Origin: Candidatus Poribacteria bacterium
GTDB taxonomy: Bacteria; Poribacteria; WGA-4E; WGA-3G
DNA: 64,000 nucleotides
Reading direction: 5' to 3'
NCBI GenBank assembly: GCA_009843785.1
Contig: VYCT01000339.1
Span: forward strand, 4,228-68,227
Shown piece after piece: positions 2,557-62,779 of this stretch. A program made the translations under genes and the position numbers. Within the stretch, counting starts at the first letter, position 1. Every line of letters begins with the position of its first letter. The notes under the pieces were generated by a model that made no database searches, was not told where the DNA came from, and saw nothing but the letters and a program-made list of their open reading frames with translations.

Positions 2557-2626
2557 ATACACGGCGAAGCAGCAATCAGAAAATGTTTCTAAGTAGCTGC
2601 CGGATTATAAGGAGGTATTTATTGAT

Positions 2627-3621
2627 ATGAAACGTGTGCAAACTTACGTGGTATTAGGGGTGGTATTGTTAAGCAATCTGTTTGTCGGCGGCGGACAAAC
2701 GGCTGAACGTAATGTCATCTCTTTTATTTCCATAACAGGTGGAGATCGTCTCCTCTATCTCATGAATACCCGAGGCGAGATGCTCCGAAAACCTTTTGTA
2801 ATAGGGCCAATACGTTTGTACGGCCTGAGCTGGGCACCTGATGGACGTGCGTTTGCCTATTACTTAAGGCGAGACGGAAACACTGATATTTATGTGATGG
2901 ATGTCGGGACAAATGAACACCATCAATTGACTTTTGACGGTAGCAGAGATACGTGGCCTGTATGGTCTCCGAATGGGAAGTGGATTGCTTTCGTCTCAGA
3001 GCGTGACGGAAGCAAGGACATCTATAGAATGGATGCAAATGGAAAAATGTGAAGCAACTCACGAACATGGGAAGCTGCGGCAGACCGGCTTGGTCGCCAG
3101 ATAGCCAATCGATTGCGTTTACGTCATCATCCTTTCTTTTTTTAATGGATACCGAGGGTAAAAGATTAAAACGGCTCGTAGCAGCTGACCCGTTCGCGCA
3201 TTGTACGTGGTCTCCAGATAGCAAACAAATTCTTTTTTCCGCAAGCGTTGGTGGATGGGGGAGAGAGGAACTTTTGAGCATCGACGTAAATGGAGCAGGT
3301 CAACATCAACTCACCTGGTTAGATCGACCCGCATCCATCTCCGAACCTATCTGGTCGCCGGATAGGAAATGGATTGCCTATTTTTTGAAAGAAATACTGA
3401 AGTTAGAACCGGTTCTCGGACCTGGAAATTTTGATCTGCCGGTCATCTATGTCATAGATACAGAAAACGATGGACACCCGGAACCGCTTGAATCAACAAA
3501 AAGATTGGCAGCCTATTCGCTGGGGTGGGCACCGGAGGGGTTCCTCTCCGTATCTCCGAGTGCAGAGAAACAGACAACACTCTGGGGGAGACTCAAGCAA
3601 TCCGAAGATGCTTCCAAGTAG
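2627..3621 (+). pseudogene. TolB-like PD40 beta-propeller protein, split by a frameshift at about 3040-3052 (ORFs 2627..3052 and 3049..3621).
   Basis: The two ORFs are collinear with the intact paralog 6642..7634. The run 'aatggaaaaatgtgaagcaactc' here corresponds to 'aatggagagaatgtgaagcaactc' there, a 1-nt loss in an A-run. The signal peptide and WSPDG/DIYVMD PD40 repeats are present. Confidence 0.65.
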
Positions 3622-3801
3622 CTGCAACATTATAGGAGAAAGTAGTTACTTTCAAATAAAGGTGGAATCGGGGTTAGAAACCTCTCCTACGGCGAATGTT
3701 AATGGTGATGCTGTTGTGAATATACAGGACTTGGTGATTGTTGTGAATGCGTTTTAGATGTGATTTATCCTATAAATGTTCGCGTAGAATGGAGGGGACA
3801 A

Positions 3802-9934: not shown

Positions 9935-12900
9935 ATGCTGATGGTGGAAAACGATGTTCAACTGATTCACAGAATTTTGTCGGGTGATGAAGCGGCATTT
10001 AGTGCTTTGGTGCGAAAGTACCAAAAGAGCGTTCACGCGCTTGCGTGGCGGAAGGTTGGGGATTTTCACATCGCTGAAGAGATTGCGCAAGATGCCTTCC
10101 TCCAAGCATACAAAAACCTCGCTACGCTGAGGAATCCCAACCAGTTTGCTGGGTGGTTGTATGTCATCGCCAATCGACTTTGCCTGAAGTGGCTCCAAAA
10201 GAAAAAAACGCCGGTACAATCGTTGGAGGGTACGTCTGTGGTAGAAGTAGAGCAATCTTCTTATAAACGTTATGTATCGGAACAGCGGGAGACAGCAGCC
10301 AAGGAACGTCGGCATGAAATCGTTGAGGCACTTTTGGAAACGTTGCCAGAGAGTGAACGCACGGTGGTGACACTCTACTATCTCGGTGAAATGACGGCGA
10401 AGGAGATTGGCAATTTCTTAGGGGTATCGGTGAACACCATTAAAAGTCGGCTTCGCCGGGCCCGAGAACGTTTACAAGCCGAAGAGCACCTGATTAGTGA
10501 AACGCTCGGAAGCGTCCAATTGCCCGCCAATTTCATTGAGCGTATTATGCAGCAAGTTGCCGACATCAAACCGACACCGCCTTCGGCTGGAAAACCGTTG
10601 CTACCCTGGATCGCTTTTGGCACCGCTGCCCTTCTTATAATGCTGATGATCAGTGTCGGTGCCCAATACCTTACGCGCTTTCAGAAACCTTACAACTTGA
10701 ACGCCGAATCGGAAACCACTGTTGAAATCATTGACGCACCTATTGTCCTTGATACGCAGGCGGAACCGGATCTGCGCAACCAAGCCGGACGTTCTGATAC
10801 CACGGGTAGGGACAGCGGTGCCGGTGTGCAAGTTTCAGAACCTGTTGTCCCAGTCGCCGCGCAGATAGAAAAGGGACCCCTGACAACACCACAGCAGTGG
10901 AAACCAGCGAGCGTACCAGCGAGCGGCCCCGTAGGCGGCTTACTGGTAAGTTCAAACGGCGATGTCTACGCCGCTTCGGGTCTCGGTATCTATAGATTAA
11001 CGCCAGACACGCGAGCATGGGCCTTCCTCAGCCCTATCGCTTTGAAGAGCTCTACAACTTTGAAGGCACCCGTTGTAATACCGATGGCGGAGCAAAATGG
11101 GACGCTTTATCTTGTTTCTCATGAAGTCCTTATTTCAACCAATGGAGGCGAGATGTGGGAGCCAGTTGGCACCCTTCCCAAAGGTATTCCTGTCGCATTG
11201 GCAGTAACGGATGAAGCCTTGTACCTCCTGCTGAAAGATAAAGGCGTTTTCCGATCTGAAGATATGGGACAGCAGTGGACACCCCTCGGTGGTGAAGTGA
11301 TGGATAGAAACATCTCTGCTTTGGCGACTATTGAAAACACCGTATTTGTCGGAACAAATCAGGGACTCTACCGTATCAATCCAACGCATAGTTCGGCAAT
11401 GGATATATGGGAAAAATTGCCGCTAACTACCACTAAAGCTATCCACTCCTTAGCAACCGCCGAGAACAACCTCTATGTCGGAACAGGCCCCGACTTAGGT
11501 ACCTCGAAACGCGAGGAAATGCGGGAACAGATGTCCGCCGAGGTATCCGCTGGGCGACCCGTGTGGGAAATTTTCCGGTCAACCGATTTCGGCGATTCAT
11601 GGACCGAAATCACACCGACAAGCGAGCCTGCCTTGACATGGTTCTCGCCGGGCATTAAGGTCCTTACTGCTGGAAAAACGCTTTGGGCATTGGGATACAC
11701 TGGGTTCCAATGCCGATCCACTGATGCTGGCGAAACATGGACAAACCATGGATACAAAAAATTGGATCCGCTTTCAATGATGAATTCGTTTATGCTGAGT
11801 GTTTTTCCTGCCATTGGTGTGGATGAAAATATCCTGTTCAAAGCCAGCCTTTTTGGGCTTATCCGTTCAACCGATGCTGGCGAATCGTGGCATCCGTTTA
11901 TGACAGGCATGGTGGGAACCCAGATATCTAACTTAGTCGCCTTCAAAAACGCACTCTACGCCTATACCGGTACGAATATCGCGAAATCCACCGACGGTGG
12001 GATGTCCTGGAGAAACCTGCGATTCACCCCTGATCAATTAACACCAGAATTAGGATCGGCATGGGAGGTCGGTCTTCTACTCTCTTCTTCGCAGCTGGCA
12101 ATTGCTGACCATAAACTCTACTGCCTCGGCAGCGCAGTTGCCGCAAACATAGAAGAGGCACAGCATCGCATCTTCCATCTTTCCCAGAACGGCGGTGCGC
12201 TGGTACTTATGTCGGAAGCTCCTGTTTTTGGTAAAAATCTTTCTATGGAGCCGCCAAAAACTGCATCACAAGAGAAGTCGGAAAAAAATAGACCCGACGA
12301 TGCTCCTAACGATCCTGAGAAGGCCGATGAATCGACAGACACAACCCGCAATCCCATAGCATCTCACAGCGCGTTTGCAGTCAGCGGCGAAACGTTTTAT
12401 GTGGAATATCAGCGGCGGCTCCTGCGGTGGAGACGCGGCGAACCTGAATGGTTCGACACTGGTCTGGTAGACATCGATCTGCGTGCTAACGATGATGGTC
12501 CCGATCATTTTATTCTGGCTGTTTCAGGTGAAATTGTCTACGTTGGCAAACGTGATGGACATCTGTTTCGATCGCTTGATAGCGGGAACACATGGAAAGA
12601 CCTGACCGCAACGTTGCCACTTCGATTTAAACATTTCAACGATATTGTTTTTGCGGATTCAGCGGTTTATGTCGCCACAGATGCGGGGGTCTTAACATCG
12701 GTGGACGGTGAAAATTGGCGCACAATAACCGATACAGTCGGTACACACACCGTCGTAGACCGAGTTGCCGTAGATGATATAACGATTTATGGTGCTGGCG
12801 ATACAGGTGCTTATCAATTGGATCATCGCGGCAGATGGGAACGGATCTCGCCAGACGTACCAAGCAGCGTCATTTCTGTTGCTGTCAAGGGTAACAGGCT

Positions 12901-12961
12901 TTATATTGTTACCGAACGGAGCGGGATGTTTTATGCCGCGCTTGAGAAGAAAAACGATTGA
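9935..12961 (+). CDS. ECF sigma-70 factor fused through a single transmembrane helix to a large extracytoplasmic BNR/Asp-box repeat domain.
   Basis: The N-terminus has sigma-70 region 2 (FSALVRKYQKSVHALAWRKV...DAFLQAYKNL) and region 4 (TVVTLYYLGEMTAKEIGNFLGVSVNTIKSRLRRARERL). A hydrophobic helix (PLLPWIAFGTAALLIMLMISVGA) follows. Then come BNR motifs (STNGGEMW, STDFGDSW, STDAGETW, STDAGESW, STDGGMSW, SLDSGNTW). The last ~150 aa are paralogous to the end of ORF 2..1765. Confidence 0.7.
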   Translation: MLMVENDVQLIHRILSGDEAAFSALVRKYQKSVHALAWRKVGDFHIAEEIAQDAFLQAYKNLATLRNPNQFAGWLYVIANRLCLKWLQKKKTPVQSLEGTSVVEVEQSSYKRYVSEQRETAAKERRHEIVEALLETLPESERTVVTLYYLGEMTAKEIGNFLGVSVNTIKSRLRRARERLQAEEHLISETLGSVQLPANFIERIMQQVADIKPTPPSAGKPLLPWIAFGTAALLIMLMISVGAQYLTRFQKPYNLNAESETTVEIIDAPIVLDTQAEPDLRNQAGRSDTTGRDSGAGVQVSEPVVPVAAQIEKGPLTTPQQWKPASVPASGPVGGLLVSSNGDVYAASGLGIYRLTPDTRAWAFLSPIALKSSTTLKAPVVIPMAEQNGTLYLVSHEVLISTNGGEMWEPVGTLPKGIPVALAVTDEALYLLLKDKGVFRSEDMGQQWTPLGGEVMDRNISALATIENTVFVGTNQGLYRINPTHSSAMDIWEKLPLTTTKAIHSLATAENNLYVGTGPDLGTSKREEMREQMSAEVSAGRPVWEIFRSTDFGDSWTEITPTSEPALTWFSPGIKVLTAGKTLWALGYTGFQCRSTDAGETWTNHGYKKLDPLSMMNSFMLSVFPAIGVDENILFKASLFGLIRSTDAGESWHPFMTGMVGTQISNLVAFKNALYAYTGTNIAKSTDGGMSWRNLRFTPDQLTPELGSAWEVGLLLSSSQLAIADHKLYCLGSAVAANIEEAQHRIFHLSQNGGALVLMSEAPVFGKNLSMEPPKTASQEKSEKNRPDDAPNDPEKADESTDTTRNPIASHSAFAVSGETFYVEYQRRLLRWRRGEPEWFDTGLVDIDLRANDDGPDHFILAVSGEIVYVGKRDGHLFRSLDSGNTWKDLTATLPLRFKHFNDIVFADSAVYVATDAGVLTSVDGENWRTITDTVGTHTVVDRVAVDDITIYGAGDTGAYQLDHRGRWERISPDVPSSVISVAVKGNRLYIVTERSGMFYAALEKKND

Positions 12962-33666: not shown

Positions 33667-34126
33667 AGTTAACTCCTTACTTTAGTAAATATAAGCTGCT
33701 ATAAGCTGCTATAAGCTGCATAAATTTTGTGTTTTTACGCTGTGAGTTTGCATCGTCTCTCTGTTGCATCGTTTCCGATTCCACTCGGTGGTGGTAGAGA
33801 CCTGCCTTGCGGCAGGGTGGAATTCTCTACCAACGATGCTGTTCATAGCATAGCACACGTTAAAATAAAATCAAGTTTTTTTTGATTTTACTATTGAAAC
33901 CGAACCGACGCAGCTAACGTTTATTGAAGTGTTGCAGGTTTGAAGTCCTGCAACATTGCAATCTATCAATCTTGAAATCCTGCAGAGAAGTAACCAGTGG
34001 CCAGTAACCAGTTAAAGAGTGCCTCGCAGTGAGAGTTGTGGCAATAACTAAAATGTTCCCGACACAAGGTCTTAACTGGTAACTCGTAACTGGAAACTGG
34101 TAACTCTAAAAAAGGAAATTTAAAAT

Positions 34127-34747
34127 ATGAAGACGTTAGCTGTTCTTTCCCGGAAAGGTGGCACCGGCAAGACGACCCTCGCGATCCATCTCGCCGTCGC
34201 CGCTGAACGCGCCGGACATACGACTATTCTTATCGATCTCGACCCACAAGCCTCCGCGGCGAAATGGAACGACCATCGCGAAGGCGATACACCTTTTGTC
34301 GTGACGGCGCCCCCATCACGCTTAACAGAAGTTTTGAACAAAGCCGCGGACGGCGGCGCAACCCTCGCAATCTTGGATACCGCACCGCACACCGAGATCG
34401 CCGCACTGGATGCCGCAAGCGTCGCAGAGATGGCGTTGATCCCATGCAAACCGGCACTCATCGACCTACAGGCGATTACCTCAACCATCAATGTGATCCG
34501 TCTCGCGAACGTGCCGGCACGGATCGTTTTCAACGCTGTCCCCGCCAGAGGTGACCGTGTCGATCAGGCGCGTGAAGCCGTCAAAGTCTTTGATGTGCCG
34601 TGCGCGCCGTGTGAAGTCGGGAATCGAATCGCTTTTAGCGATTCCTATAACGCCGGACTCACCGCACAGGAATACGAACCGCGCGGAAAAGCGAGTCGTG
34701 AAATCAGAGAACTTTATACTTACATATCAACCGAAATGGGGGTATAA
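34127..34747 (+). CDS. parA: ParA/Soj-family partition ATPase (small type Ib).
   Basis: Deviant Walker A motif KGGTGKTT, an IDLDPQ block, and a 206-aa length. Confidence 0.8.
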   Translation: MKTLAVLSRKGGTGKTTLAIHLAVAAERAGHTTILIDLDPQASAAKWNDHREGDTPFVVTAPPSRLTEVLNKAADGGATLAILDTAPHTEIAALDAASVAEMALIPCKPALIDLQAITSTINVIRLANVPARIVFNAVPARGDRVDQAREAVKVFDVPCAPCEVGNRIAFSDSYNAGLTAQEYEPRGKASREIRELYTYISTEMGV

Positions 34748-36114: not shown

Positions 36115-37413
36115 ATGTATGCGTTTATGGAAACTGTGATGAAAAAGGCATTTGACCGAGATACGGGCCGATACTACATGGTAGCAATGCCAGGCCCCGC
36201 AACCGTTAGACAGAATATCCTTGATCTTGAGTATCCTGAAGACGGAATCAGCGTTAAGGATGCGTCAATTATATTAGCCGAGAAGCTTAACCTTTCTGAC
36301 GAACAGAAAAATGCAAGGAATAGTTCCAACCTCAATGTGTTTCGTTACAGTGTGGTTGCCCCACAATTTAAATGGCTCTTAGAGGCGGGTGAACTCGAAC
36401 AACCCGGAGGCCCCAGAACCCTCTACTTTCCAGCTATAAGCAGCTCGGATTCATCAGATAGTACGCTTCGTGAAACCTCTCCTGATCCTGAACCTGAATG
36501 GGCATCTTCTCCAGAATCGGTGAAGAGAACAGCGGTGGACCCTGATACAAACGAAGAATACGAGGTACCCTTACCACCAACTTCTGTTGTCAAAGAAGCA
36601 CTTCTTGATTTTGACTATCCAGCGAGTGGAATTCAGATTAAGGATATTGCAGAGGCATTGGCTGACCAATTAGAACTCACCGATAAGCAGAGAGAGGCCA
36701 AGAATACATACGGTCTGGTTTGGCGATTTCATGTAAATATCACAGCAAATGACTTAGTAAACTCGGGGCAACTTTTGAAACTAAGGCGTGGATGGATTAT
36801 CAATCCTGAACAGCCGGACGTGGAGACTCCAGAAGATGCTGATGGTGACTCCGCATTTTCTGATGGAGATACGCCGTCTCCCGAAGCTGTCATTGATCGG
36901 AATTATCGAAAACACCGAGACGGATTGAAGGCAGAGCTTCGAGAAAAAATTATGGCCAGCGATCCAGGTTTTTTTGAGAAACTGGTTCTTTGCCTTCTCG
37001 TTGAGATGGGGTATGGTCGTTCGCGGGCAGATGCTGAAGTCTTAGGACGTAGTGGTGATGGGGGTATTGACGGTATTATTAAAGAAGATGAACTCGGACT
37101 TTCTCTGATTTATATTCAGGCAAAGCGGCAGGAGGGCAATGTATCAGTCTCTCAAGTCCGAGATTTTACTGGAGCATTAGATTGTAAAGGTGCCCAGAAA
37201 GGGATATTCATCACAACTTCAAATTTTACTCAGCCTACTAAAGATTTTGTAGAAGAAGTACGCTCTAGGAGGATTATCCTTATCGATGGCGATCAACTTG
37301 TGGAGCGGATGATTGACCATGACTTAGGTGTTTCCTTAGGGATCTTTTACCAGCTCAGAGAGGTGGATCCGGGTTACTTTTCTATAGATGATGAGGAAAT
37401 AAATGATGAATGA
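36115..37413 (+). CDS. Mrr-family type IV (modification-dependent) restriction endonuclease with two N-terminal Mrr_N winged-helix domains.
   Basis: The C-terminal Mrr_cat block reads GYGRSRADAEVLGRSGDGGIDGIIKEDELGLSLIYIQAKRQEGNVSVSQVRDFTGAL...GIFITTSNF (PD-(D/E)xK with D...QAK). There are two ~90-aa N-terminal repeats (DLEYPEDGISVKD... and DFDYPASGIQIKD...). Confidence 0.75.
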   Translation: MYAFMETVMKKAFDRDTGRYYMVAMPGPATVRQNILDLEYPEDGISVKDASIILAEKLNLSDEQKNARNSSNLNVFRYSVVAPQFKWLLEAGELEQPGGPRTLYFPAISSSDSSDSTLRETSPDPEPEWASSPESVKRTAVDPDTNEEYEVPLPPTSVVKEALLDFDYPASGIQIKDIAEALADQLELTDKQREAKNTYGLVWRFHVNITANDLVNSGQLLKLRRGWIINPEQPDVETPEDADGDSAFSDGDTPSPEAVIDRNYRKHRDGLKAELREKIMASDPGFFEKLVLCLLVEMGYGRSRADAEVLGRSGDGGIDGIIKEDELGLSLIYIQAKRQEGNVSVSQVRDFTGALDCKGAQKGIFITTSNFTQPTKDFVEEVRSRRIILIDGDQLVERMIDHDLGVSLGIFYQLREVDPGYFSIDDEEINDE

Positions 37414-38119: not shown

Positions 38120-39604
38120 ATGAATGTTGAAAACAGAACTATTTTTGAAGGTGATAATCTACATATCCTGCGAGGGTTTGATTCTGAGACGATAGACCTT
38201 ATTTATTTGGATCCGCCCTTTAATTCCAATCGGACGTATGAAGCTCCGATCGGAAGCGAGGCTGCTGGTGCAGCGTTCAAAGACGCTTGGACATTAAGTG
38301 ATTTGGATAATGCTTGGCACGGCGAACTTGCTGAGCATGAACCTGCACTCTATTCTTCTATTAGTGCTGCTGAATTTAGCCATAGCAAGTCTATGAAAGC
38401 TTACCTTATCATGATGGGCATCCGAATGCTGGAACTGCGACGTGTGCTGAAACCAGATGGAGGCATCTATCTGCACTGTGATTCGACAGCAAGCCACTAT
38501 CTGAAAACGATGATGGATAGTATTTTCGGAAGAAATAACTTTAGATCTGAAATTACATGGAAGCGCACAACATCTACGCAAAAAGGATCTCAGCATCGTA
38601 GTATGCGGTGGGGCAATAACGCTGATGTACTCTTGTTTTATGCGATGTCTCGATCTACGTCATTGTGTCCTGAAAGGGAACTCACAGAATCTGAAATCTT
38701 GGAAAAATTCAAACATATTGACGAAAATGGTCAGCGATATTATGACGACTCAGCTCATATTTGGCGAACCCCAAATATGGGAGAGCGTCCAAACCTTTGT
38801 TATGAATGGCGTGGCTTTGTGAACCCACATATAGCTGGATGGAGGTTGAGCAGAGAGCGTTTGGAAGAAGAATATCAAAAAGGGAACATCGTTATTCGTC
38901 CTGATGGGAAATTGGAACGTCGGAAGTATCTTAAAGACTACAAAGGTGCTTCCTATGGTAATATCTGGGATGATATACTACCGCCCGGGCAAGGCGAACG
39001 CACTGGTTACCCAACTCAAAAGCCTCTCGAACTTTTAAAGCGTATTATCAGGGCGAGCAGTAAACCTAATGATATTGTTCTTGATCCATTCTGTGGGTGT
39101 GCAACAACTTGTATCGCAGCGGAAGCCGAGCAGAGACAATGGATCGGTATTGATCTAAGCCCCAAAGCTGTAGAACTTGTAAAATTTCGTCTGGAGCACG
39201 AATTGAAACTTACGGAAGATGGGGATATGCTCGGGGACAAGGTTATACACCGGACGGACATACCTACTCGCTTGGTGCCAGAAGAACCGCGTCAGATACA
39301 TGCTGATACCTTGTTCGGTATTCAAGACGTAGTGGGACAGGCTTTATCGCAAGTTGAACTCCGGCAGTATCGATCATATAAGCATACATTGTATGGACTT
39401 CAGGAAGGCAAATGCAATGGGTGTGAAGTGCTGTTCCCGTTTAGGAACCTGACAATTGACCATATCATTCCGCGCTCCAGAGGTGGCACTGATGACCCTG
39501 ATAATCTCCAGTTGTTGTGTGCCGCGTGCAACTCCACGAAAGGTGATCGGACGCAAGCGTATTTGATACAGGCGTTAAAAGAACAGGGCGTTCGTCGCGA
39601 GTGA
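38120..39604 (+). CDS. DNA methyltransferase (beta-class N6-adenine/N4-cytosine, DPPF motif) fused to a C-terminal HNH endonuclease domain.
   Basis: Motif IV LIYLDPPFNSNRTYEA sits near the N-terminus. Motif I LDPFCGCATTCIAAE sits near residue 315. The C-terminus reads CNGCEVLF...LTIDHIIPRSRGGTDDPDNLQLLCAACNSTKGDR, an HNH with C-x2-C ... C-x2-C. Confidence 0.75.
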   Translation: MNVENRTIFEGDNLHILRGFDSETIDLIYLDPPFNSNRTYEAPIGSEAAGAAFKDAWTLSDLDNAWHGELAEHEPALYSSISAAEFSHSKSMKAYLIMMGIRMLELRRVLKPDGGIYLHCDSTASHYLKTMMDSIFGRNNFRSEITWKRTTSTQKGSQHRSMRWGNNADVLLFYAMSRSTSLCPERELTESEILEKFKHIDENGQRYYDDSAHIWRTPNMGERPNLCYEWRGFVNPHIAGWRLSRERLEEEYQKGNIVIRPDGKLERRKYLKDYKGASYGNIWDDILPPGQGERTGYPTQKPLELLKRIIRASSKPNDIVLDPFCGCATTCIAAEAEQRQWIGIDLSPKAVELVKFRLEHELKLTEDGDMLGDKVIHRTDIPTRLVPEEPRQIHADTLFGIQDVVGQALSQVELRQYRSYKHTLYGLQEGKCNGCEVLFPFRNLTIDHIIPRSRGGTDDPDNLQLLCAACNSTKGDRTQAYLIQALKEQGVRRE

Positions 39605-40875: not shown

Positions 40876-41619
40876 ATGAAAGGCACAAGACCCCTCGATA
40901 ACGACGAGATCAGACAAGTTGCCGCATGCTTTGACGGCAGCTTTGAAATCCGTAACCGCGGGCTTTTCATGCTCGGCGTAAGTACTGGCGGACGTATCTC
41001 CGAATTGCTCAGCCTACGCGTCGGGGATGTCTACCAAAACAAGCGTCCCGTGACCGATCTCCTTTTCGATAAATCCGTCGTCAAGGGGGGTGAGGTTTCC
41101 AGAGCTGTACCCGTCAACAGCGATGGTCGACGCGCCATAGAAGACCTGATCGCTTGGCACGGCGAGCGATACCAGAACGCCGACAAAGATCGTCCGCTAT
41201 TCCCATCGAGGAATGGGCAGGGCGAGAAACGGATGTCGCGCCGAACCGCACACGATGTTTTGAAACGTGCTTTTGAGGCAGCAGGGCTGAACGGTCATCT
41301 CGCGACGCACAGTTTGCGAAAGAGTTTCGCTCAACGGCTCTATGATCGCACCGGTGATATTTTTGCCGTGCAAGAGATGTTAGGGCATAAATCTGTCACG
41401 ACGACCCAGAAATACTTGGGCGTGAATTACGCGAACATCAAGGAAGCCGTAGAGGAGATGGCGGTTGCCAGTGAGCTGCACATTAGCGGACTTTTGGGCA
41501 GTGCAATCAAAAAAGAGAAGGACGAAACCCTGTTCCTCGAACTCGCACTCCGCGGGTACGACCTCTCCAATTTGCGAGATGACAACGAAACTACAGCCGA
41601 AATCGTCAGGATCAGTTAA
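40876..41619 (+). CDS. Tyrosine-type site-specific recombinase (integrase), a short form with the catalytic domain only.
   Basis: Box I reads RNRGLFMLGVSTGGRISELLSLRVGDV. Box II reads HSLRKSFAQRLYDRTGDIFAVQEMLGHKSVTTTQKYL (R..H..R..Y). At 247 aa it lacks the usual N-terminal core-binding domain. Confidence 0.8.
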   Translation: MKGTRPLDNDEIRQVAACFDGSFEIRNRGLFMLGVSTGGRISELLSLRVGDVYQNKRPVTDLLFDKSVVKGGEVSRAVPVNSDGRRAIEDLIAWHGERYQNADKDRPLFPSRNGQGEKRMSRRTAHDVLKRAFEAAGLNGHLATHSLRKSFAQRLYDRTGDIFAVQEMLGHKSVTTTQKYLGVNYANIKEAVEEMAVASELHISGLLGSAIKKEKDETLFLELALRGYDLSNLRDDNETTAEIVRIS

Positions 41620-44445: not shown

Positions 44446-44862
44446 ATGGAGGCAGGGGCGGATAATGCTGCCCCTGATATTTTGATGCCCAAGAATTTTA
44501 ACTACTACAAGATGGGCGCGGTTGCCTATCTTTTCATAAACGAACCGGATAAAACCGTGAAGGAGATCGCCGATGCGGTTGGTATCCGCGAGAATACTGT
44601 CCACCAATGGCAAGCGAAAGGCGAATGGGACAAGGCGCTCGATGCGTTCAACTTCACCGGCGATAGAAGCCTCCGCAGGAAAGCCGCTCGCGATCTTGAA
44701 CGTGAGAGTAGCGACGTGATCGCCTTGGCGGAATCGATGTACCGTGAGGCGCGTGATACGGGGATGAACAAGGGACAGGCATCCAAGCATACCGCTAAAA
44801 TCGTCAATGTTTCTGAAAAAACCATCTTTAACTGGCGCAAGCGGTTTGCATGGGATGAGTAG
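44446..44862 (+). CDS. HTH-domain protein (two helix-turn-helix-like segments); a putative transcriptional regulator.
   Basis: VKEIADAVGIRENTVHQWQAKG and VSEKTIFNWRKRF resemble HTH_23/28-type motifs. Confidence 0.4.
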   Translation: MEAGADNAAPDILMPKNFNYYKMGAVAYLFINEPDKTVKEIADAVGIRENTVHQWQAKGEWDKALDAFNFTGDRSLRRKAARDLERESSDVIALAESMYREARDTGMNKGQASKHTAKIVNVSEKTIFNWRKRFAWDE

Positions 44863-45038
44863 GCTTCGTCATTTGACGAAGGGATGAGTTATAGACTGTA
44901 GCGCGTAATGAAGCAGATCGCTTATGGGGTTTTTGCTGGGGTGTTTCTTCAAGTACGCCGCAAAATGGAGCGCGGATCTACGGAGAGGCACTTCATTCAT
45001 CAAACTGACTTGACCGAACCGCAAGGAAAGTTAAAAAA

Positions 45039-56054: not shown

Positions 56055-58340
56055 TTAGTCTCCTTTCTGAATTGTATATGGTGCCCATTTCGCTGCGTTG
56101 GCTATGCAGCTATCACAGTGTTTCGCTGCGACGTTCAAGAGCCAGAACGCCTCGATCGTGTCTTTTTTCTCGTCAATTTCCCACCGGCACCGGCACCGTG
56201 CCCTACAAATTTGGCTACCGTCCGCGGGGTATTCCGGCAGTTCTATGTCAAAACTCGCCGCTTTCGCCTGTTCATGCGCACGGGTTGACGATTCCATATA
56301 GAGTTCCGATCGGGCAGTGATCTGATTCGCACTCAGCCTACCCGCACGGACCTCCTCGCCAAACTGCTGCAAGTAGTCAAACTGGTCTTTGATGATTTCA
56401 GAGAGCGCATCCAGATCGGTTTGAAACATAGCGTTCCGACCGCCACGTGCGAGCATATATTGGGCGTTATTCACATCGCGTATCCGTTTCCGCATCTCAT
56501 GCACCCATTCCTGGACGGTGATCCGCGAGTTGATGAGGTTATCCGTCAGCTCGCTGAACGTGTCGCGCTTCAAATCAACAAAATCGTCACGCAACCGTAG
56601 CACTGTGTTAGCGGAGACCGTCTTTTTCGTCTTGGCATTCCGATACCGTTTCGTCAACTGGTTCCAGACCCAATCCCCTTTTTTCACAGTATCAATCGCA
56701 TCGGTTTGCGTCATGCCGGTCACCCTGGCGTTCAACAGATTCTTGTAGTCGGGTAGCACGTCCTCAAAAGATTCGATCGCACTTTCAAGGAACGCCGCAG
56801 TCACTTCAAAATTGGATGGCACGACAGGGAGCGGATCTTCTGAACCGTCTGGGCTAATTGTTGCGGCTCTTTGGTCGTCACTTTCACTGCTACATTCTGG
56901 GCAGTCGCGATCCGAACAGAGACGCTCATGTTCACGGTTACTGGTAACTGGCAACTGGTAACTGGCGACTTCTTTACTGCGCATCCCGGAGGAATGCTTG
57001 TTCTTTTCTGCCTTGTACTTGTTGACGGCTTCCTCATAAGTTTTGTCATCGATGCCCTCCATATCGCGTAGCTCTTTGAGTTTCTGGAGGTTCTCAATTT
57101 TGATACCCTCCGCCTCTGCGATCGCCTTAACATCTTCAGGGTCGGGTGTGTTCTCGAAAGAGAACATCACCTTACCTTTGACACCTTCGGCGCGCAGGAC
57201 ATACCCCAATTCTGTTGAGAGTGTCCCCGCAACTGTTGACTGGATACTGGATATATCGATCCGGTAATCCTTGCGTTGTTCACGGGCATGCGTCTCAGCG
57301 ACGTTCTCGTTAGAATGCTGCTTAATCGGCGTTGACCCGGTGGCACGACCGACACGCCGATCATATAACCGCATCAGCCCGTCCACTAACCCAAAAAACG
57401 AGCTTTGCATCTGTCCGCCGGTGGGCATGTTCACTTTCACGATGTCCAAGTGACCGTACCCTTCGTTCGGCTTGAGGTTAGAATACATCTGATTCACACC
57501 GTTAATAAAATCTTGGATGAATTCGTCTTCTGCATCGACATCACCGATAATCTCTGGCGGCATGAAGTCTTTGAGCTTCTCGCTGTCGATCTCAAAATCT
57601 GCACGTGCCCAGCCTTGTGATTCCAGGACCCTTCTAAAATCGTTCATGACACCGAGCATCCGGACGACATCCAAAGGTGCGGATTCCAGCATCGACTTGC
57701 CAAACGGTTCATTCGGTCCAGCGTTGAACGGTACGTACATGACTGTCGGATCCTCGTGTAGATACACCCATTTCCCTTTCTGCCATTGACCGAGCAGCCA
57801 CTCGTCTTCGACTCTATGGAAACGCGCAACATACGGATCCATCACTGCGATGTCTATCGCCATATCTGCGGATTCGTTGAGTTCGAGTTCAATGAACATG
57901 GCACCGCCTTTATAGATACCGGCGAAAATCCGATCCAAAATCACATCAAAATCGTGGTGTTTCGTCTCCAGCCGTGCGATAAAGTCGTCTATAACCGGTG
58001 TCGCACTTTCGGGTTCGACTTGGTAATACCACGATTCATTACAGTTCCGCAGAAAGTCTTTGTACGCCTTGTTCACCTCTGGGCTGATGCTTGTCACGAC
58101 TTTCATGAACTGATCGACAGGCAGATGCAACAGCTCTTCTTCTGTCCAGTTCTTCAACTGGAAGACACTCCGGGTGCGTTCCGGCGGTGCGACATGGTAG
58201 AGCGTCTGTGACTTGAACGGGTCCTGCATGGAGACCCGACCGCCAGCGAGTGCCCGTGTGTTCCGGGAACGTGCAACTGCTTCCGGGTCTCTACCGAAGA
58301 TGCGCTTATTCAAGTCTTGAAGTGTCCGTTGTAGATTCAT
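56055..58340 (-). CDS. Putative portal protein, possibly with a C-terminal Mu-F-like head morphogenesis extension.
   Basis: A 761-aa ORF immediately downstream of TerL and upstream of the protease. It contains a heptamer-repeat insertion (VASYQLPVTSN) and a Cys-rich C-terminus. Confidence 0.4.
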   Translation of the reverse strand: MNLQRTLQDLNKRIFGRDPEAVARSRNTRALAGGRVSMQDPFKSQTLYHVAPPERTRSVFQLKNWTEEELLHLPVDQFMKVVTSISPEVNKAYKDFLRNCNESWYYQVEPESATPVIDDFIARLETKHHDFDVILDRIFAGIYKGGAMFIELELNESADMAIDIAVMDPYVARFHRVEDEWLLGQWQKGKWVYLHEDPTVMYVPFNAGPNEPFGKSMLESAPLDVVRMLGVMNDFRRVLESQGWARADFEIDSEKLKDFMPPEIIGDVDAEDEFIQDFINGVNQMYSNLKPNEGYGHLDIVKVNMPTGGQMQSSFFGLVDGLMRLYDRRVGRATGSTPIKQHSNENVAETHAREQRKDYRIDISSIQSTVAGTLSTELGYVLRAEGVKGKVMFSFENTPDPEDVKAIAEAEGIKIENLQKLKELRDMEGIDDKTYEEAVNKYKAEKNKHSSGMRSKEVASYQLPVTSNREHERLCSDRDCPECSSESDDQRAATISPDGSEDPLPVVPSNFEVTAAFLESAIESFEDVLPDYKNLLNARVTGMTQTDAIDTVKKGDWVWNQLTKRYRNAKTKKTVSANTVLRLRDDFVDLKRDTFSELTDNLINSRITVQEWVHEMRKRIRDVNNAQYMLARGGRNAMFQTDLDALSEIIKDQFDYLQQFGEEVRAGRLSANQITARSELYMESSTRAHEQAKAASFDIELPEYPADGSQICRARCRCRWEIDEKKDTIEAFWLLNVAAKHCDSCIANAAKWAPYTIQKGD

Positions 58341-58597
58341 TTAATTTTCTCGTCTGTTAGCATCTCCTCGAGAAGTTTCCAGAAAGACATCGGGATGTGG
58401 GTATGTTGCTCACGCTTTGTTGCCATGTTGCCCTTCGTCGCATTAAAATGCTTTTTGATTTTGCGACAATGCTGAACAGCGGCGTGTACCTCTTCCAAAC
58501 TTACTTTTCCTTCGGATATGTATTCAATTTTCAATTTGGATTGCATCTCACCTCCGCATGGTGACGCTGCCGTGAACGACGCGTCCGGAGCCAACAC
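58337..58597 (-). CDS. Hypothetical small protein between TerL and the portal.
   Basis: ORF overlapping both neighbouring genes by a few nt. Confidence 0.35.
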   Translation of the reverse strand: MLAPDASFTAASPCGGEMQSKLKIEYISEGKVSLEEVHAAVQHCRKIKKHFNATKGNMATKREQHTHIPMSFWKLLEEMLTDEKIK

Positions 58598-59990
58598 TCT
58601 GTTTCTTTTTCAGGCTTTGCACCAAATAACTCGTGCCATCGACACCGTGATTGTCACCCACAGTATCCTCATCGTCCTTATTTGTGCCTTTGCGTTTCTC
58701 GTTGTAGCTCAGACTCAAGAATTCGTCAGTGACTTCGACCGGACGGTATTCGTCTCTGAGGTCTTGATCGGGTGGATGTACCAACCTATCTCGCAAGAAC
58801 ATAAGTGAGGGTTGACCATCGCGTTGAACTTTTAACCGGTCCTGTATCCCCTGAATTTGTGCGATTCTATTTTTTACCGGTTCATTGACACGGAACCCTG
58901 CCCGTTGGAGTTGCTCCACGCCTTCTTGGTCTTCGCTATCAACCGCGGCATACGTGATACGGTCGTAGTGATCGCAGTTATCTTTTATCAACTCTATCAG
59001 TTCAGGCTTGATGAGTCCGGTCTTATAGATTTCCTTGTAAGCGTACAATTTATCGTCTGGCGACCGTGCCCACCAGATCACGCTTGCGGGATTGCGATAC
59101 CCCCAGTCCACACTCAGATACCGTTTCCAGTTCGGCATGATCGTTACATCAACGATATGCGTTTCCGGTTCAAACTTCTGAAAAACTAACCCTTCACCCG
59201 ATGCCCAGAGACCGAGAAACCCACGTTTGAAGCGTAAGCCCTCAAGGTTCTTGAGTTTCTCAACACGCCGTAAACCCGGTACTGTGAACATATCCATTAT
59301 CTTGTTCAGCAGTTTCGGATCGGGGTCGTTCTCAAACGCACGTTTGAACGCTTTCAGTCGATCGGACTTCTGATCGGGAATAATCTCAGGATTGTCCAAA
59401 AACGACATCCTGAAATAGTCCAGTTTTTTGTCCTTCGCCTGTTGGCGAATCCAGTGATGCGGCACATTCGGGTTACAATCACCGACAAGGGTTGCAATCG
59501 GCATCGTGCCGGCACGTTCCGAGACACGGGCTGTGAGTTCGTCCCACGCGTCAAAAGGTACAAGTTCGGCTTGGTTGACAAACCCTGCATCAAAGAAATC
59601 GGATAACAGGTTCTGCGGTTTATCTAACCCGTTCATGTAGATGCGGGTGCCGGTTTCGTATTCAAAGAACTCCGGACGCTCGCCACCAAATCGCGTCACA
59701 CGGGTCGGATTCGGATCATCACGGCTTGTCGGCTTGTATCCCAACAATTTCTCGTAACTCGGAATGATGTTCCGATACACACGGTTCAAACTCCGATGCA
59801 CAAACGTCATTCGGGAGCCGGGATACTTGATTGCCATTGCGTGCATGTAGGCGATGAGACCGTAGGTTTTACCAGCGTCGTAAGTCCCACCAGCGATTTT
59901 CACGCTTGCACGTGTATCCCATAAATCCCACATGCGGGCATACGGACGATAATGCCCATGACCATACCCGATAACAGATCGTTTCTGCAT
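58548..59990 (-). CDS. Terminase large subunit.
   Basis: N-terminal ATPase Walker A block (VKIAGGTYDAGKTYG). C-terminal RNaseH-like nuclease block (YLSVDWGYRNPASVIWWARSPDDKLYAYKEIY). Confidence 0.65.
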   Translation of the reverse strand: MQKRSVIGYGHGHYRPYARMWDLWDTRASVKIAGGTYDAGKTYGLIAYMHAMAIKYPGSRMTFVHRSLNRVYRNIIPSYEKLLGYKPTSRDDPNPTRVTRFGGERPEFFEYETGTRIYMNGLDKPQNLLSDFFDAGFVNQAELVPFDAWDELTARVSERAGTMPIATLVGDCNPNVPHHWIRQQAKDKKLDYFRMSFLDNPEIIPDQKSDRLKAFKRAFENDPDPKLLNKIMDMFTVPGLRRVEKLKNLEGLRFKRGFLGLWASGEGLVFQKFEPETHIVDVTIMPNWKRYLSVDWGYRNPASVIWWARSPDDKLYAYKEIYKTGLIKPELIELIKDNCDHYDRITYAAVDSEDQEGVEQLQRAGFRVNEPVKNRIAQIQGIQDRLKVQRDGQPSLMFLRDRLVHPPDQDLRDEYRPVEVTDEFLSLSYNEKRKGTNKDDEDTVGDNHGVDGTSYLVQSLKKKQSVGSGRVVHGSVTMRR

Positions 59991-59993
59991 GCG

Positions 59994-60644
59994 TCAAACC
60001 GTTATCTCCTTTTCCTCTTCCTCGGAGAGCTCCTCAAGCGTTGGGAAATTATCAATCAGTTGCTTCGTTTCGAGATCGAAACTTCCAATAACGCTGACTT
60101 GCTCCTCAACCGGTGCATCCTTAAGTGCCGCTTTCTGTTTTGCTTCAGTCTTGGCTTTCGCATCCTCTTGCGCTTGACGGCTGTTTGTATCGTAACCGTG
60201 ATGCTCCAGATTCCAGCGTTTCATTAACTTATCGGCGATCATGGTGAGCCACTTGAAGTTCTCGATAAAGAGAAGCTGCTTTTCAAAATCTATCTTGTTG
60301 GAAGCTATGTTTTGGAGTACCCAGACCTGAAAGATCGCTAACACTTCGTCATAGGTATTTATCAGGGTGTTGATGGTTTTCTCGTTGTCCTCCGCTGAGC
60401 GTGCGTCACTGGAAAACTTTTTGCGTCTTTCATGGAACTGTGTTTGTGTGTCTGTGGGGGCATCTGCTAATAGATAAACGCCCCGCTTCGGCCTCTCAAG
60501 GGTGTGATCTTTTGTCAAAATACCGAGTCGTTTTTTTATGTTACCTTCTGTGTGTTGCGGGAGCGCGTCGAAAATTTCGCTCGTACGCATTTTACCTTTT
60601 TCTCTAAGCAACACTACGATATTTTTATCAACTGGACTTGCCAT
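59994..60644 (-). CDS. Winged-helix DNA-binding protein immediately upstream of TerL: a candidate terminase small subunit, or alternatively an iteron-binding Rep/repressor.
   Basis: N-terminal winged-helix (VVLLREKGKMRTSEIFDALPQ...KKRLGILTKDHTLERPKRGVYLL). Acidic C-terminus. Five 22-bp direct repeats lie 13-120 bp upstream of its start. Confidence 0.45.
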   Translation of the reverse strand: MASPVDKNIVVLLREKGKMRTSEIFDALPQHTEGNIKKRLGILTKDHTLERPKRGVYLLADAPTDTQTQFHERRKKFSSDARSAEDNEKTINTLINTYDEVLAIFQVWVLQNIASNKIDFEKQLLFIENFKWLTMIADKLMKRWNLEHHGYDTNSRQAQEDAKAKTEAKQKAALKDAPVEEQVSVIGSFDLETKQLIDNFPTLEELSEEEEKEITV

Positions 60645-60656
60645 TTTTTGTTCCTT

Positions 60657-60779
60657 CGGAGACGGTTTAGATACTTTTTAGAGACGGTTTAGATACCCTT
60701 CGGAGACGGTTTAGATACCCTTCGGAGACGGTTTAGATACTTTTTAGAGACGGTTTAGATACTTTTCAGATATTATCTG
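60657..60779. repeat. Five tandem 22-23-bp direct repeats (C/A)GGAGACGGTTTAGATAC(TTTTT/CCTT), followed by the palindrome CAGATA-T-TATCTG.
   Basis: Seen directly in the sequence. Candidate TerS recognition (pac/cosB-like) repeats, or iterons/operators. Confidence 0.8.
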
Positions 60780-60819
60780 GGCATCGTCAAATGACGAAGC
60801 GAATCTTGCTACTCATAAT

Positions 60820-60900
60820 TATAATGTGGAGCGCGTGGTGTCTATAAGGGGAATTCGGTAGGAAAGCAATACATAAGCAATACATAAACAATACATTTGA
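60820..60900. repeat. Left copy of an ~80-bp imperfect inverted-repeat pair. It contains three CAATACATAA(G/A) tandem units.
   Basis: 'ATAATTATAATGTGGAGCGCGTGGTGTCTATAAGGGGAATTCGGTAGGAAAGCAATACATAAGCAATACATAAACAATAC' is about 90% identical to the reverse complement of 62530-62612. Confidence 0.8.
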
Positions 60901-61093: not shown

Positions 61094-61390
61094 TTGGGAA
61101 CTAACAGACTAAAACCCGTTACTTTTAAGATGACACAGCAGCAACTCGACTGGCTTGAACAGGAGAGCGAAAAAACTGGCTTGAATAAAGTCGAAATCGT
61201 CCGGCGCGCACTCGACGATTATAAAGATGTTCAAGCGGAGAAAGAGAAATCCGAATACTTCACGCCGCAACAACGGCAGAATATCAAAGTAATGGCACGC
61301 ATGCAGTGTATCTCTGAAACAGAGGTAATCCGCAGGGCAGTTAACAGAGAAACCCGTGTTGTGTCAAAATTAAAGAAAAGGAGGACATAG
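61094..61390 (+). CDS. Tandem ribbon-helix-helix (CopG/Arc-like) DNA-binding protein.
   Basis: Two RHH units: KPVTFKMTQQQLDWLEQESEKTGLNKVEIVRRAL and TPQQRQNIKVMARMQCISETEVIRRAV. Confidence 0.5.
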   Translation: MGTNRLKPVTFKMTQQQLDWLEQESEKTGLNKVEIVRRALDDYKDVQAEKEKSEYFTPQQRQNIKVMARMQCISETEVIRRAVNRETRVVSKLKKRRT

Positions 61391-61689
61391 TGGAAAACCG
61401 AATGAACGTCCCGGAAGTCTATGAACCGAAACTCCCAAAGAAGGTAGCGGAATACGTTGCTAAGAAAAAGGCAGCCGCGGAAACCTCGGAAGGGCAGACG
61501 ATCTGGTACCAGTGTGTTGACACACCCCACTATTGGGCGAAAGGTGGGCATAAAGGTTGTGAGCAGGAGGGTACGCTCCAAGTGGAAGCCGTGCTCACGG
61601 ATCCCAATAACGAGGGCGCGCTCATGGTTACCTTTGAAGATAACCGACTCTTTACCATCCAAGACAGCGCAATGCTACCCGCAAAGTAA
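61390..61689 (+). CDS. Hypothetical protein.
   Basis: ORF overlapping the upstream stop (ATGA). Confidence 0.4.
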   Translation: MENRMNVPEVYEPKLPKKVAEYVAKKKAAAETSEGQTIWYQCVDTPHYWAKGGHKGCEQEGTLQVEAVLTDPNNEGALMVTFEDNRLFTIQDSAMLPAK

Positions 61690-61815
61690 AGGTAAGAAGT
61701 TTGCAAGTGTTCTAAAGTTTGTAAGTGCCTAAAGTTAAAAAGAGGTTTCTGACAACTTCTCAACTTTAGTTCACTTTAGATACACTTTACAGACTTTTTT
61801 AAAGGAGACAACACA

Positions 61816-62364
61816 TTGGACGACATCCGCACCCAACTCCCCGAATGCCCGCTCGAGTATGAAGTACCATACATCCCAGCCACACACGCAGCACTCGTTA
61901 TCCGTATCAACGCCGCAGACATCGACTGGCAAGAGAAGATGTTACCTTGGACCCTCGCCAGTCTGATTAACAACACCGATCTCATCATGATAGGTGTACA
62001 TCTCTATATAGTGTGCGAGGACGGAGTCCCCGAAGACCGCATCAAAAACGCACTGAAAAACTTTGACCTACCCGAAAGGTCGATCATTGACTCGGCAGCG
62101 GCAGCAATAGTACTCGTTGAGGATGGACACCACAATAGAACTTACGACGCTGTAGCCACTACGAATATCAACTACTGGGCATTCCGAGATGAGAGCAACA
62201 CCCACAAACTCATCTTCTCAGAATTACGGAGCATCGAGCCGTATCCTTCTATTTCAGAGGTATCCCCAAACCCGATGCTCTATGATATGACGCACTGCAC
62301 ACCGGCGCAATTCCGACACGCCATCAAACACCTCCTGGGCGCACAACTCGCGATGAAGATATGA
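61816..62364 (+). CDS. Hypothetical protein.
   Basis: ORF preceded by AAAGGAGACAACACATTG, the same RBS context as at 61094. Confidence 0.4.
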   Translation: MDDIRTQLPECPLEYEVPYIPATHAALVIRINAADIDWQEKMLPWTLASLINNTDLIMIGVHLYIVCEDGVPEDRIKNALKNFDLPERSIIDSAAAAIVLVEDGHHNRTYDAVATTNINYWAFRDESNTHKLIFSELRSIEPYPSISEVSPNPMLYDMTHCTPAQFRHAIKHLLGAQLAMKI

Positions 62365-62529
62365 GTAGTTACCCGTTTCCAGTTTTCAGTTACCAGTTAC
62401 CAGAAAAGAAAGTTTGCAAATGTTCTAAAGTTTCAAAGTTGCGAAGTTATGAGGCTCCCTCTTTCAACTTTAGCTCACTTTACGGACTTTAGCACACTGG
62501 ACAACTTTACCCCACTGGTCACTGGCGAC

Positions 62530-62612
62530 TGGTAACTGAAAACGTATTGTTTATGTATTGCTTATGTATTGCTTTCCGTCCGAATTCCCCTTATAGACAC
62601 CACCCACGCCAT
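62530..62612. repeat. Right copy of the ~80-bp inverted-repeat pair.
   Basis: It is the reverse complement of 60820-60900, with a few mismatches. Confidence 0.8.
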
Positions 62613-62779
62613 ATTATAATTGACTAAAATAGTCTACGAAAAAGGAAGTTACCAGTAACCAGTTACCAGTAACCAGTAACAAGAGGTTTTTGATAGTTAC
62701 AGGGTTTCCTCTTTAACTGACAACTGAAAGATTTTTTTCGGAGAAAAAAATCGTACTGACAACTGTTAACTATTAAAAG

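Follow-up and report, generated by a model that had tools for sequence, protein, structure and literature searches.

The repeat array, its leader and the neighbouring genes

The window, by which is meant the whole 64,000-nucleotide stretch of DNA analysed here, carries ordinary cellular genes from position 1 to about 34 kb (hemA, an aminotransferase, beta-propeller proteins) and a phage-like element from about 33.7 kb to its end. The genes of this element include those for a ParA-like protein (34127-34747; phrog_164 at 5e-39), Mrr, a methylase-HNH fusion, an integrase and lysis, neck, head, portal and large terminase (TerL) proteins. Scans of the window for tRNAs and Rfam families found nothing, and a search of the GenBank phage collection for near-identical DNA returned no match. 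TerL (480 aa; 58548-59990, minus strand) matches phrog_2 at 1e-24 and is 28% identical, with an E-value of 7e-52, to annotated large terminases; its nearest relatives among these are the enzymes of the DTR phage Dagobah and of the PBSX group. Downstream of it lie the genes for a 761-aa portal protein (56055-58340, minus strand; phrog_3753 at 1.4e-13), then for a protease/scaffold and then for a major head protein. Directly upstream, on the same minus strand, an open reading frame for a 216-aa winged-helix protein (59994-60644) ends 3 nt from the TerL start, and in 23 of 23 related loci TerL likewise starts between -1 and +7 nt after the stop of the 216-aa homolog. Judged from this gene order, the 216-aa gene is the first gene of a morphogenesis operon and is translationally coupled to TerL. 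On the other flank of the array described below are a small RHH cassette and probable tail genes.

In front of the 216-aa gene, from -126 to -11 relative to its ATG, stands a tract of short direct repeats (60655-60770). Tandem Repeats Finder calls this tract with a period of 22 (5.3 copies, 88% matches, score 169) and also with a period of 11 and 9.2 copies. A 16-mer, GAGACGGTTTAGATAC, occurs in it as five mismatch-free copies, 22 bp apart, which start at 60659, 60681, 60703, 60725 and 60747 and together span 60659-60762. The same 16-mer is absent from the rest of the 64-kb window; 0.02 copies are expected by chance, and at least five were seen in 0 of 100 shuffles. The basic period, however, is 11 bp. 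Ten GTMTCYRAA sites, each with a further 2 nt, follow one another on the minus (coding) strand in exact 11-bp steps between 60655 and 60762, with an eleventh, degenerate copy beyond them at the far end; elsewhere in the window the motif has 7 matches against 4.4 by chance. The 22-bp period arises from the alternation of two 11-bp units, GTATCTAAACC and GTCTCYRAARR, the spacers alternate between CTTTTTA and CCCTTCG, and A-runs recur every 11 bp.

An initial annotation of this DNA had described five tandem 22-bp repeats with alternating spacer types, placed just upstream of a winged-helix gene whose stop abuts the TerL start. The spacers, the position (before a gene on the minus strand) and the close junction with TerL all hold, as do the five perfect 16-mers at 22-bp intervals, but the true period is 11 bp and the sites number ten. 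The 11-bp period, the conservation across the family, the conserved palindrome beside the array and a candidate small terminase gene at 44446-44862 are absent from that annotation.

It had also pointed to a palindrome at the end of the repeats. This palindrome, CAGATATTATCTG, is present at the far end of the array (60767-60779), where it is made up of a conserved CAGAT and the first, degenerate repeat unit. On its own it is not significant, an equal match being found in 10 of 100 shuffles, and relatives keep the CAGAT but not the palindrome. In one related locus (L036) a similar sequence, CAGATATACTATCTG, precedes the ATG. The palindrome that relatives do conserve is the neighbouring TTCGTCATTTGACGA at 60781-60800, written as a hairpin TTCGTCAnnTGACGA(TGC), which lies directly 5' of the array in the leader, is predicted to form a small RNA hairpin and coincides with the left edge of the swapped cassette described below. 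A second copy, GCTTCGTCATTTGACGAAGG, sits at 44863-44882, directly after the stop codon of an unrelated 138-aa gene. Because of this second copy, the reading of 60781-60800 as a cosN-like cut site was downgraded; the recurrence argues that the palindrome is a site for a regulator or an element connected with transcription, and not the one place where the DNA is cut.

Further upstream is a promoter-like element on the minus strand (60818-60844), with TAGACA at 60839-60844, a 15-nt spacer and TATAAT at 60818-60823. It is conserved in an alignment of the leaders of relatives as CACATTATAAT; a promoter scan chose the neighbouring AATTAT, not TATAAT. The element is part of the left arm (60817-60898) of an 82-nt inverted repeat, which comprises this promoter cassette and three 11-nt ATGTATTGYTT repeats (60864-60896). 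The right arm (62540-62621), 91% complementary to the left, carries the same promoter cassette facing rightward toward open reading frames from 62780. Since no 11-bp array stands behind this opposite-facing copy, the array is confined to the transcribed leader of the packaging operon. In an alignment of twelve leaders the order is constant: three ATGTATTGYTT repeats, a promoter-like block ending in CACATTATAAT, the TTCGTCAnnTGACGATGC(C)CAGAT palindrome, the array, the ribosome-binding site and the ATG. Folded as RNA, the window's leader is less structured than its own shuffles (z = +1.45); an RNA reading of the leader was therefore rejected, and the repeat is taken to be a signal in duplex DNA. 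A nearby 2-kb region is rich in other repeats. Mini-repeats of ACTTTAGNNC at 61760-61790 and 62464-62518 were set aside as extra binding sites, the same motif being found in a relative (L003) whose main array differs.

The winged-helix protein and a second candidate small terminase

The 216-aa protein falls into two parts. Codons 1-70 (60435-60644, minus strand) encode a hypervariable winged helix-turn-helix (HTH) domain, the putative protein half of a specificity cassette, and AlphaFold2 models residues 1-60 as a winged helix at pLDDT 82-90. The remainder (59994-60434, minus strand) encodes a conserved core of helices at residues 66-79, 84-114, 120-149 and 156-175 followed by an acidic, flexible tail, which would serve in oligomerisation and TerL binding. 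This core, with its long helices 84-114 and 120-149, is modelled at moderate confidence (pLDDT 55-74, pTM 0.31), and the acidic C-terminal tail is predicted to be disordered.

Database comparisons recognise the winged helix and nothing else. Foldseek matches are limited to winged helices (YodB, ArsR, AspA, Z-alpha), the match to the centromere binder AspA covering only the generic winged helix at an E-value of about 0.01. In Pfam the best match is HxlR alone, at E 0.033. In PHROGs, all 40 members of the family and 10 distant representatives match generic regulator families, and two of the 40 members also have weak matches to a replication initiation protein (E 0.026). No match to a small terminase subunit (TerS) was found for the family in Pfam, in PHROGs (the 40 members and 10 distant representatives), among PDB sequences or with Foldseek against PDB and BFVD. 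A tblastn search of the 216-aa protein against phage genomes gave nothing below E 0.2, and hhalign comparison of the family profile with the genes in TerS position of phages Dagobah and P1312 gave a probability of 0.2%, that is, no relation. The family as defined here has no Pfam or PHROG home. As the searches match the winged helix alone, two readings are left: a small-terminase family not described before, or proteins of another kind with a tie to TerL.

What points to the former is position and layout. The gene stands where a TerS gene is expected, just upstream of TerL, and its product has a predicted N-terminal HTH domain, while similarity to a described TerS family was found neither by sequence nor by fold searches. 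Typical TerS proteins have a size of 15-21 kDa and an oligomerisation core that forms 8-12-mer rings; at 216 aa, the present protein is somewhat larger. Known TerS proteins consist of an HTH, a helical-hairpin core, a stalk and a flexible C-terminus (PMC9611059), a layout that the architecture predicted for the 216-aa protein, with its moderately confident helical core, would match.

A second candidate for the small subunit lies at 44446-44862 on the plus strand, in a gene for a 138-aa protein (probably 125 aa, starting from MPKNF) with two HTH motifs. This protein passes the Pfam cut-offs for Terminase_5 (35.1 bits), Phage_terminase (34.3) and HTH_23 (36.5). The terminase matches cover only a 28-residue HTH, to which generic HTH families match equally well, and a structure and fold search gave nothing significant, the top match being 2ao9 at E 0.5. 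Its homologs are 82-100% identical, which places the gene among the highly conserved core genes of the phage family, and its product could be the real TerS. However, the gene is 15 kb from TerL on the opposite strand and the protein ends in a second HTH, a layout unlike that of known small terminases.

Co-inheritance of array and winged helix

A Candidatus Poribacteria assembly encodes a protein 100% identical to the 216-aa protein, and all genome matches of the latter are from Poribacteria. Homologs occur on many contigs of about 84-105 kb, which look like phage genomes of that size; several of their names end in _c, apparently the assembler's circular flag, to judge from the names only. For comparison, 24 loci with a winged-helix-bearing homolog were used, all on Poribacteria-associated phage contigs. 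All 24 have an array at the homologous position. Its basic period is ~11 nt; in a few distant relatives (for instance L015 and L016) this shows up as a period of 21, 32 or 33 nt. Across loci the arrays comprise about 4.5-14 units, mostly 7-12. They end 2-20 nt before the ATG, and in some loci they overlap the start codon by a few bases. Copy number is fluid: L019 and L020, whose proteins are identical, have 3.4 and 7.7 units. Several contigs end in or near the array (L001, L018, L022, L023). These ends were rejected as physical termini, as assembly breaks at repeats explain them equally well; tandem repeats and long inverted repeats, such as the 82-nt one here, break short-read assemblies.

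The sequence of the unit, in contrast to its position, differs between loci. It reads TRYGAAAACYT in L012 and L030, AAGCATACATA in L013 and L017 and CCGTGAARAAC in L031, and it has the core TGTCTGAAA in L026 and L027 and the core ATCAAAAG in L028 and L029. All of these unit types keep an A-run once per 11 bp. In the protein alignment, the N-terminal 60-70 residues are hypervariable and the rest is strongly conserved. Pairwise identity averages 32% in the N-domain, 64% in the core and 77% in the first 140 residues of TerL.

These two kinds of variation go together. Array similarity, measured by shared 6-mers, tracks N-domain identity (Spearman 0.33, partial 0.32, p about 1e-7, Mantel 0/2000). 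It does not track TerL identity (0.06), and its relation to identity in the core is weak (rho 0.16 raw, and a non-significant 0.09 after partialling). The 12 pairs of loci with N-domains at least 65% identical have a mean array similarity of 0.47, against 0.07 for the other 241 pairs. Conversely, where the core is at least 90% and TerL at least 94% identical but the N-domain at most 41%, the arrays are unrelated (0.004-0.09).

One such exchange can be followed at the level of DNA. Aligned with locus L026, the window is 83-100% identical up to -121 and 87-100% identical from +210 onward, while the stretch in between (-120 to +209) shows 50-70% identity. What has been exchanged thus corresponds precisely to the array together with codons 1-70. 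A comparison of L021 with L002 gives the same right edge. Profile search also turned up relatives that start at the conserved core; P0152, P0149, P0166 and P0173 lack the DNA-binding domain. For one of them, the distant relative P0152 (157 aa, no winged helix), the gene directly downstream is that of a TerL 72% identical to the window's, and its locus has no longer reading frame, no nearby winged-helix open reading frame and no array in front. A search for more such relatives among viral contigs returned none, and the evidence on this point thus comes from one locus.

Taken together, the array is conserved in position, phased at 11 bp and inherited along with the winged helix, and the 216-aa gene is coupled to TerL. 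At the level of sequence comparison, array and winged-helix domain behave as one co-varying, co-inherited module.

Candidate functions and known systems

How small terminases select viral DNA is still debated, and the pac sites described so far are short and degenerate and do not readily match a ring of DNA-binding domains. It is against this background that the present module gains interest. The winged helix very probably binds the array. The best-supported explanation for the pair, with support that is partial, is that the array is a pac/cosB-like packaging site. The initial annotation had put forward such a site, read by a winged-helix TerS, and the proposal is strengthened by the array/winged-helix module, by the coupling to TerL in 23 of 23 loci and by the domain-less variant that has no array; what it does not find is a match to any known TerS beyond the winged helix. 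In its fuller form, the 216-aa protein would represent a new small-terminase family in which each DNA-binding domain reads one repeat per helical turn, and the array would act both as a pac/cosB-like site and as an autoregulatory operator. This is a reading that we place slightly on the probable side.

The mechanism may be pictured as follows. The array would be the DNA half, and the N-terminal winged helix of the 216-aa protein the protein half, of a two-part specificity module, in which the protein serves as the TerS of a roughly 85-105-kb phage family of Candidatus Poribacteria. We infer binding, the formation of an oligomer, the TerS identity and a role in packaging that would include a cut site. 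The conserved helical core would oligomerise with the winged helices on the outside, spaced by roughly one turn of DNA and each recognising a single 11-bp unit, such that about 110 bp of phased, A-tract-rich DNA could wrap around the assembly. The DNA-bound complex would then tag the phage DNA and pass it on to TerL, the product of the next, translationally coupled gene, whereupon packaging would start. Because the array sits between the conserved promoter and the ribosome-binding site, autorepression is expected, and the same complex could shut down transcription of the packaging operon and so switch the phage from expression to packaging.

That very position, between the conserved TATAAT promoter and the ribosome-binding site, also suits the main rival, in which the array is an operator and nothing more. 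Here the 216-aa protein would control the packaging/head operon, as an autoregulator or as a repressor of the immunity type, its cooperative binding to the phased leader sites would block transcription or ribosome access, and the true TerS would lie elsewhere, for example in the 138-aa protein. Every family match of the 216-aa protein is to transcription regulators, and a repressor and its operators would be expected to co-vary just as a TerS and its site would. Phage immunity modules are characterised by hypervariable binding domains paired with matching sites, and the 138-aa protein, a conserved core gene product, does pass the Pfam thresholds for Terminase_5 and Phage_terminase. Such a repressor gene would, however, stand first in the morphogenesis operon, translationally coupled to TerL in 23 of 23 loci. 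P0152, which keeps the core and the place upstream of TerL without a DNA-binding domain, would make little sense as a repressor, and the 138-aa alternative has terminase matches limited to its 28-residue HTH, a gene 15 kb off on the other strand and a second HTH at its end. As the whole account of the array, this reading is judged unlikely. The repressor/operator alternative of the initial annotation lives on in the autoregulatory part of the mechanism above and as this main rival, but is less favoured than the TerS reading. Much less probable still is that the array is an RNA-level leader element or a meaningless, slippage-prone repeat. It does lie within the predicted 5' leader, and identical proteins do go with 3.4 units in L019 and 7.7 in L020. 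Yet the leader folds less well than its shuffles, no Rfam family matches it, and an arrangement kept in 24 of 24 loci, with a sequence that tracks the DNA-binding domain, is hardly that of a chance repeat; we give this reading almost no weight.

Two further explanations would tie the array to plasmid-like maintenance. The repeats could be a replication origin, with the 22-bp units as iterons and the winged-helix protein as a Rep initiator. A 22-bp spacing of direct repeats beside a winged-helix gene is classic for iteron plasmids, the adjacent 2-kb region is rich in other repeats, and there are the weak PHROG matches of two of the 40 members to replication initiation. RepA, RepE and Pi initiators are built of tandem WH1-WH2 domains, whereas the 216-aa protein has a single winged helix with long helices and no significant match to a Rep family. 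Moreover, the units in fact repeat every 11 bp, the array runs up to the ribosome-binding site of a TerL-coupled gene, its flanks are TerL and portal on one side and the RHH cassette and probable tail genes on the other, and at the resolution used no turn of the GC skew stands out. The initial annotation's alternative of a Rep protein with origin iterons is not supported, in view of the single winged helix, the missing Rep family match and the place in a TerL-coupled morphogenesis operon, and an origin here is very improbable. Slightly less remote, although still quite improbable, is a partition centromere of a phage-plasmid, in which the array would consist of parC/tubC-like iterons and the winged-helix protein would form a ring or filament like ParR or TubR. 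In plasmid R1, parC consists of two sets of five iterons upstream of the operon (PMC2241845), and the direct repeats of tubC are always upstream of tubR and are bound by TubR in a dual role of repression and segregation (PMC6009700); the array likewise lies upstream of the gene for its presumed binder. The ParA-like protein of the element, the 84-105-kb contigs of relatives with names in _c (a circular flag as far as the names alone tell) and the AspA match fit such a view. The gene that follows, however, encodes TerL instead of ParM, TubZ or ParA, the ParA-like gene lies at a distance of 26 kb, a relative without a DNA-binding domain retains the core beside TerL, and AspA is matched over the generic winged helix only.

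If the packaging reading is right, it can be taken a step further. An exchangeable ~330-bp address cassette, made up of phased iterons and the 70-codon winged-helix tip of an undescribed TerS family, may set which DNA is packaged, with one iteron per ring subunit; this extension is plausible, but we stop just short of calling it probable. Were it true, repeat number would reflect ring size, a single recombination between near-identical phages would re-deal specificity, and the locus would be the first natural case in which the wrap model of one HTH per helical turn is written plainly in DNA sequence. The relatives amount to natural swap experiments, as terminase cores and large subunits that are more than 90% identical go with unrelated arrays and unrelated winged helices. 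The swapped loci are ready cognate and non-cognate pairs for tests of binding, structure and packaging specificity, and the module might provide a toolkit for programmable DNA packaging. In the genomes of uncultivated phages of sponge symbionts, it further provides a landmark that can be recognised. Even if the 216-aa protein proved to be only a regulator, the locus would remain a clean example of a modular, phased operator array.

Among known packaging systems, the closest parallel to the TerS reading is that of phages SPP1 and SF6. The pac site of SPP1 contains direct repeats that extend over the promoters and the beginning of the gene for the small terminase. Adjacent HTHs of a TerS ring are separated by about one DNA turn, and about 100 bp have been proposed to wrap around them, with the TerS-DNA complex proposed to switch between transcription and packaging (PMC4737164). 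As with the SPP1/SF6 pac and its small terminase G1P, the repeats here lie between promoter and gene start: from -126 to -11, downstream of a conserved TATAAT and with A-runs every 11 bp. The wrap envisaged for SPP1/SF6, about 100 bp of bendable DNA rich in A/T-runs around a ring of HTHs, is the same as that proposed here. The differences are in the explicitness of the site and in the protein. SPP1 repeats are few, short and degenerate, whereas the array has about ten near-perfect 11-bp units. The SPP1 HTH binds with little sequence specificity, whereas the array changes with the binding domain, which implies specific reading. With G1P, the 216-aa protein shares no homology of sequence or fold beyond an HTH. 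By analogy, the proposed mechanism amounts to the SPP1 model with an explicit, specific site.

The lambda system offers a parallel of gene order. There, cosB (R3, R2, R1) lies directly upstream of the gene for gpNu1, a protein with an N-terminal winged helix, and this gene precedes that of the large subunit; between lambda and phage 21, site and N-terminus vary together, while a neighbouring element and the large subunit are conserved. The order of site, winged-helix gene and large subunit recurs here, as does a variable site paired with a variable N-terminus, and the conserved palindrome beside the variable array may be likened to the conserved neighbouring element of lambda and 21. The anatomy of the sites is another matter. 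Lambda cosB has three 16-bp R sites in mixed orientation with a bend induced by IHF, an arrangement that ten direct 11-bp sites do not reproduce, and the second copy of the palindrome elsewhere weakens a cosN-like reading in comparison with lambda. The cosB analogy of the initial annotation stands, then, for the position and for the joint variation of site and N-terminus, but not for the make-up of the site.

Likeness to plasmid systems is mostly one of repeat arrangement. Iteron origins of the RepA, RepE and Pi type also place 22-bp-spaced direct repeats beside a winged-helix gene; they differ in having two winged helices instead of one, and neither the 11-bp period, the morphogenesis-operon leader nor the lack of a Rep match would be expected of them. 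Iterons beside an AT-rich unwinding element in the context of replication genes are not found at the locus, where the neighbours are morphogenesis genes and small regulators. R1 parC with ParR and the type III tubC with TubR, itself a winged-helix protein, share with the array phased direct iterons upstream of the gene for the centromere binder. ParR and TubR bind cooperatively, and the resulting nucleoprotein complex, curved or ring-like in shape, doubles as a repressor of the operon. The ParMRC and TubZRC operons, however, encode the cytomotive ParM or TubZ, whereas the next gene here is that for the terminase ATPase-nuclease TerL, and the 216-aa protein is twice the size of ParR or TubR, with a conserved helical core that has no counterpart in them. 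Direct repeats at packaging sites and centromeres are thus already known. New in the present case are the regularity of the site, with one near-perfect unit per turn and about ten units in all, the exchange across the family of a 330-bp block that joins array and domain, and a TerL-coupled protein family without a home in the databases.

Short repeats and a mirrored promoter-like block

Heptanucleotide repeats of ACTGGTW, AGTTWCC or CAGTCAC type form short runs of 3-9 copies between positions 34073 and 62680 of the window; the runs lie in many of the gaps between phage genes and are absent from the cellular part. Examples lie at 34073, 34755, 35234, 43455, 43824, 45236, 46860, 46941, 48426, 54078, 54233, 54291, 56940, 60961, 61044, 62367 and 62647. 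Identical heptamers are also present in four relatives on Poribacteria-associated phage contigs (L003, L021, L029 and L033). A regulator that acts throughout the phage probably uses these runs as its operators; the RHH protein encoded at 61094-61390 may be that regulator.

The RHH gene belongs to a three-gene cassette, together with a 99-aa ORF (61390-61689) and a 182-aa ORF (61816-62364), that is enclosed by the arms of an 82-nt inverted repeat (60817-60898 and 62540-62621, 91% complementary). Each arm consists of a promoter-like block and three 11-nt ATGTATTGYTT repeats, pointing outward, an arrangement that suggests two divergent operons under one shared promoter sequence.

Mini-arrays of a 10-11-nt unit, ACTTTAGNNC, are found at 61760-61790, preceding the 182-aa ORF, and 700 bp beyond, at 62464-62518. 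The unit is similar to part of the main array ahead of the 216-aa winged-helix gene, which reads TTTAGATAC on the plus strand. Because the motif also occurs in L003, despite the different main array of that relative, the mini-arrays are probably a separate conserved signal.

Variation at the array and its palindromes

The relatives L019 and L020 encode an identical homolog of the 216-aa protein, yet their arrays hold 3.4 and 7.7 units, respectively; either array copy number changes fast or the arrays were collapsed in assembly. At L036, whose relative of the 216-aa protein has no DNA-binding domain, a 229-nt tandem repeat (3173-3681; 2.2 copies, 96% matches) lies upstream of the gene and adjoins a 379-aa protein (1933-3072) containing a (GEKR)n stretch. 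The palindrome CAGATATACTATCTG is located immediately 5' of the ATG.

The palindrome adjoining the window's main array has a second copy (44863-44882) directly after the stop codon of a gene for a 138-aa double-HTH protein (44446-44862, plus strand). This protein scores above the Pfam Terminase_5 and Phage_terminase thresholds, is 82-100% conserved within the phage family, and in some homologs (P0274, P0289 and P0291) is fused to a GIY-YIG nuclease domain.

Other genes, and a possible lifestyle of the element

Between the large terminase and portal genes lies a small ORF of 86 aa (58337-58597, minus strand) with no family match; L027, L032 and L035 have predicted ORFs of 87-92 aa in the corresponding position. 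In the cellular part, a 1008-aa ORF (9935-12961, plus strand) joins N-terminal ECF-type sigma-70 regions 2 and 4 to BNR/Sortilin-type beta-propeller repeats, an unusual fusion.

On its plus strand, the phage element encodes an Mrr-type restriction endonuclease (36115-37413) and, at 38120-39604, a fusion of DNA methylase and HNH nuclease. The same strand of the element also carries genes for a ParA-like partition ATPase (34127-34747; phrog_164, 5e-39) and for a short integrase of tyrosine-recombinase-like type (40876-41619). Among its relatives, assembled contigs measure 84-105 kb and bear names that end in _c, a suffix that may stand for circular. A phage-plasmid lifestyle is possible, but in the window the element adjoins cellular genes.
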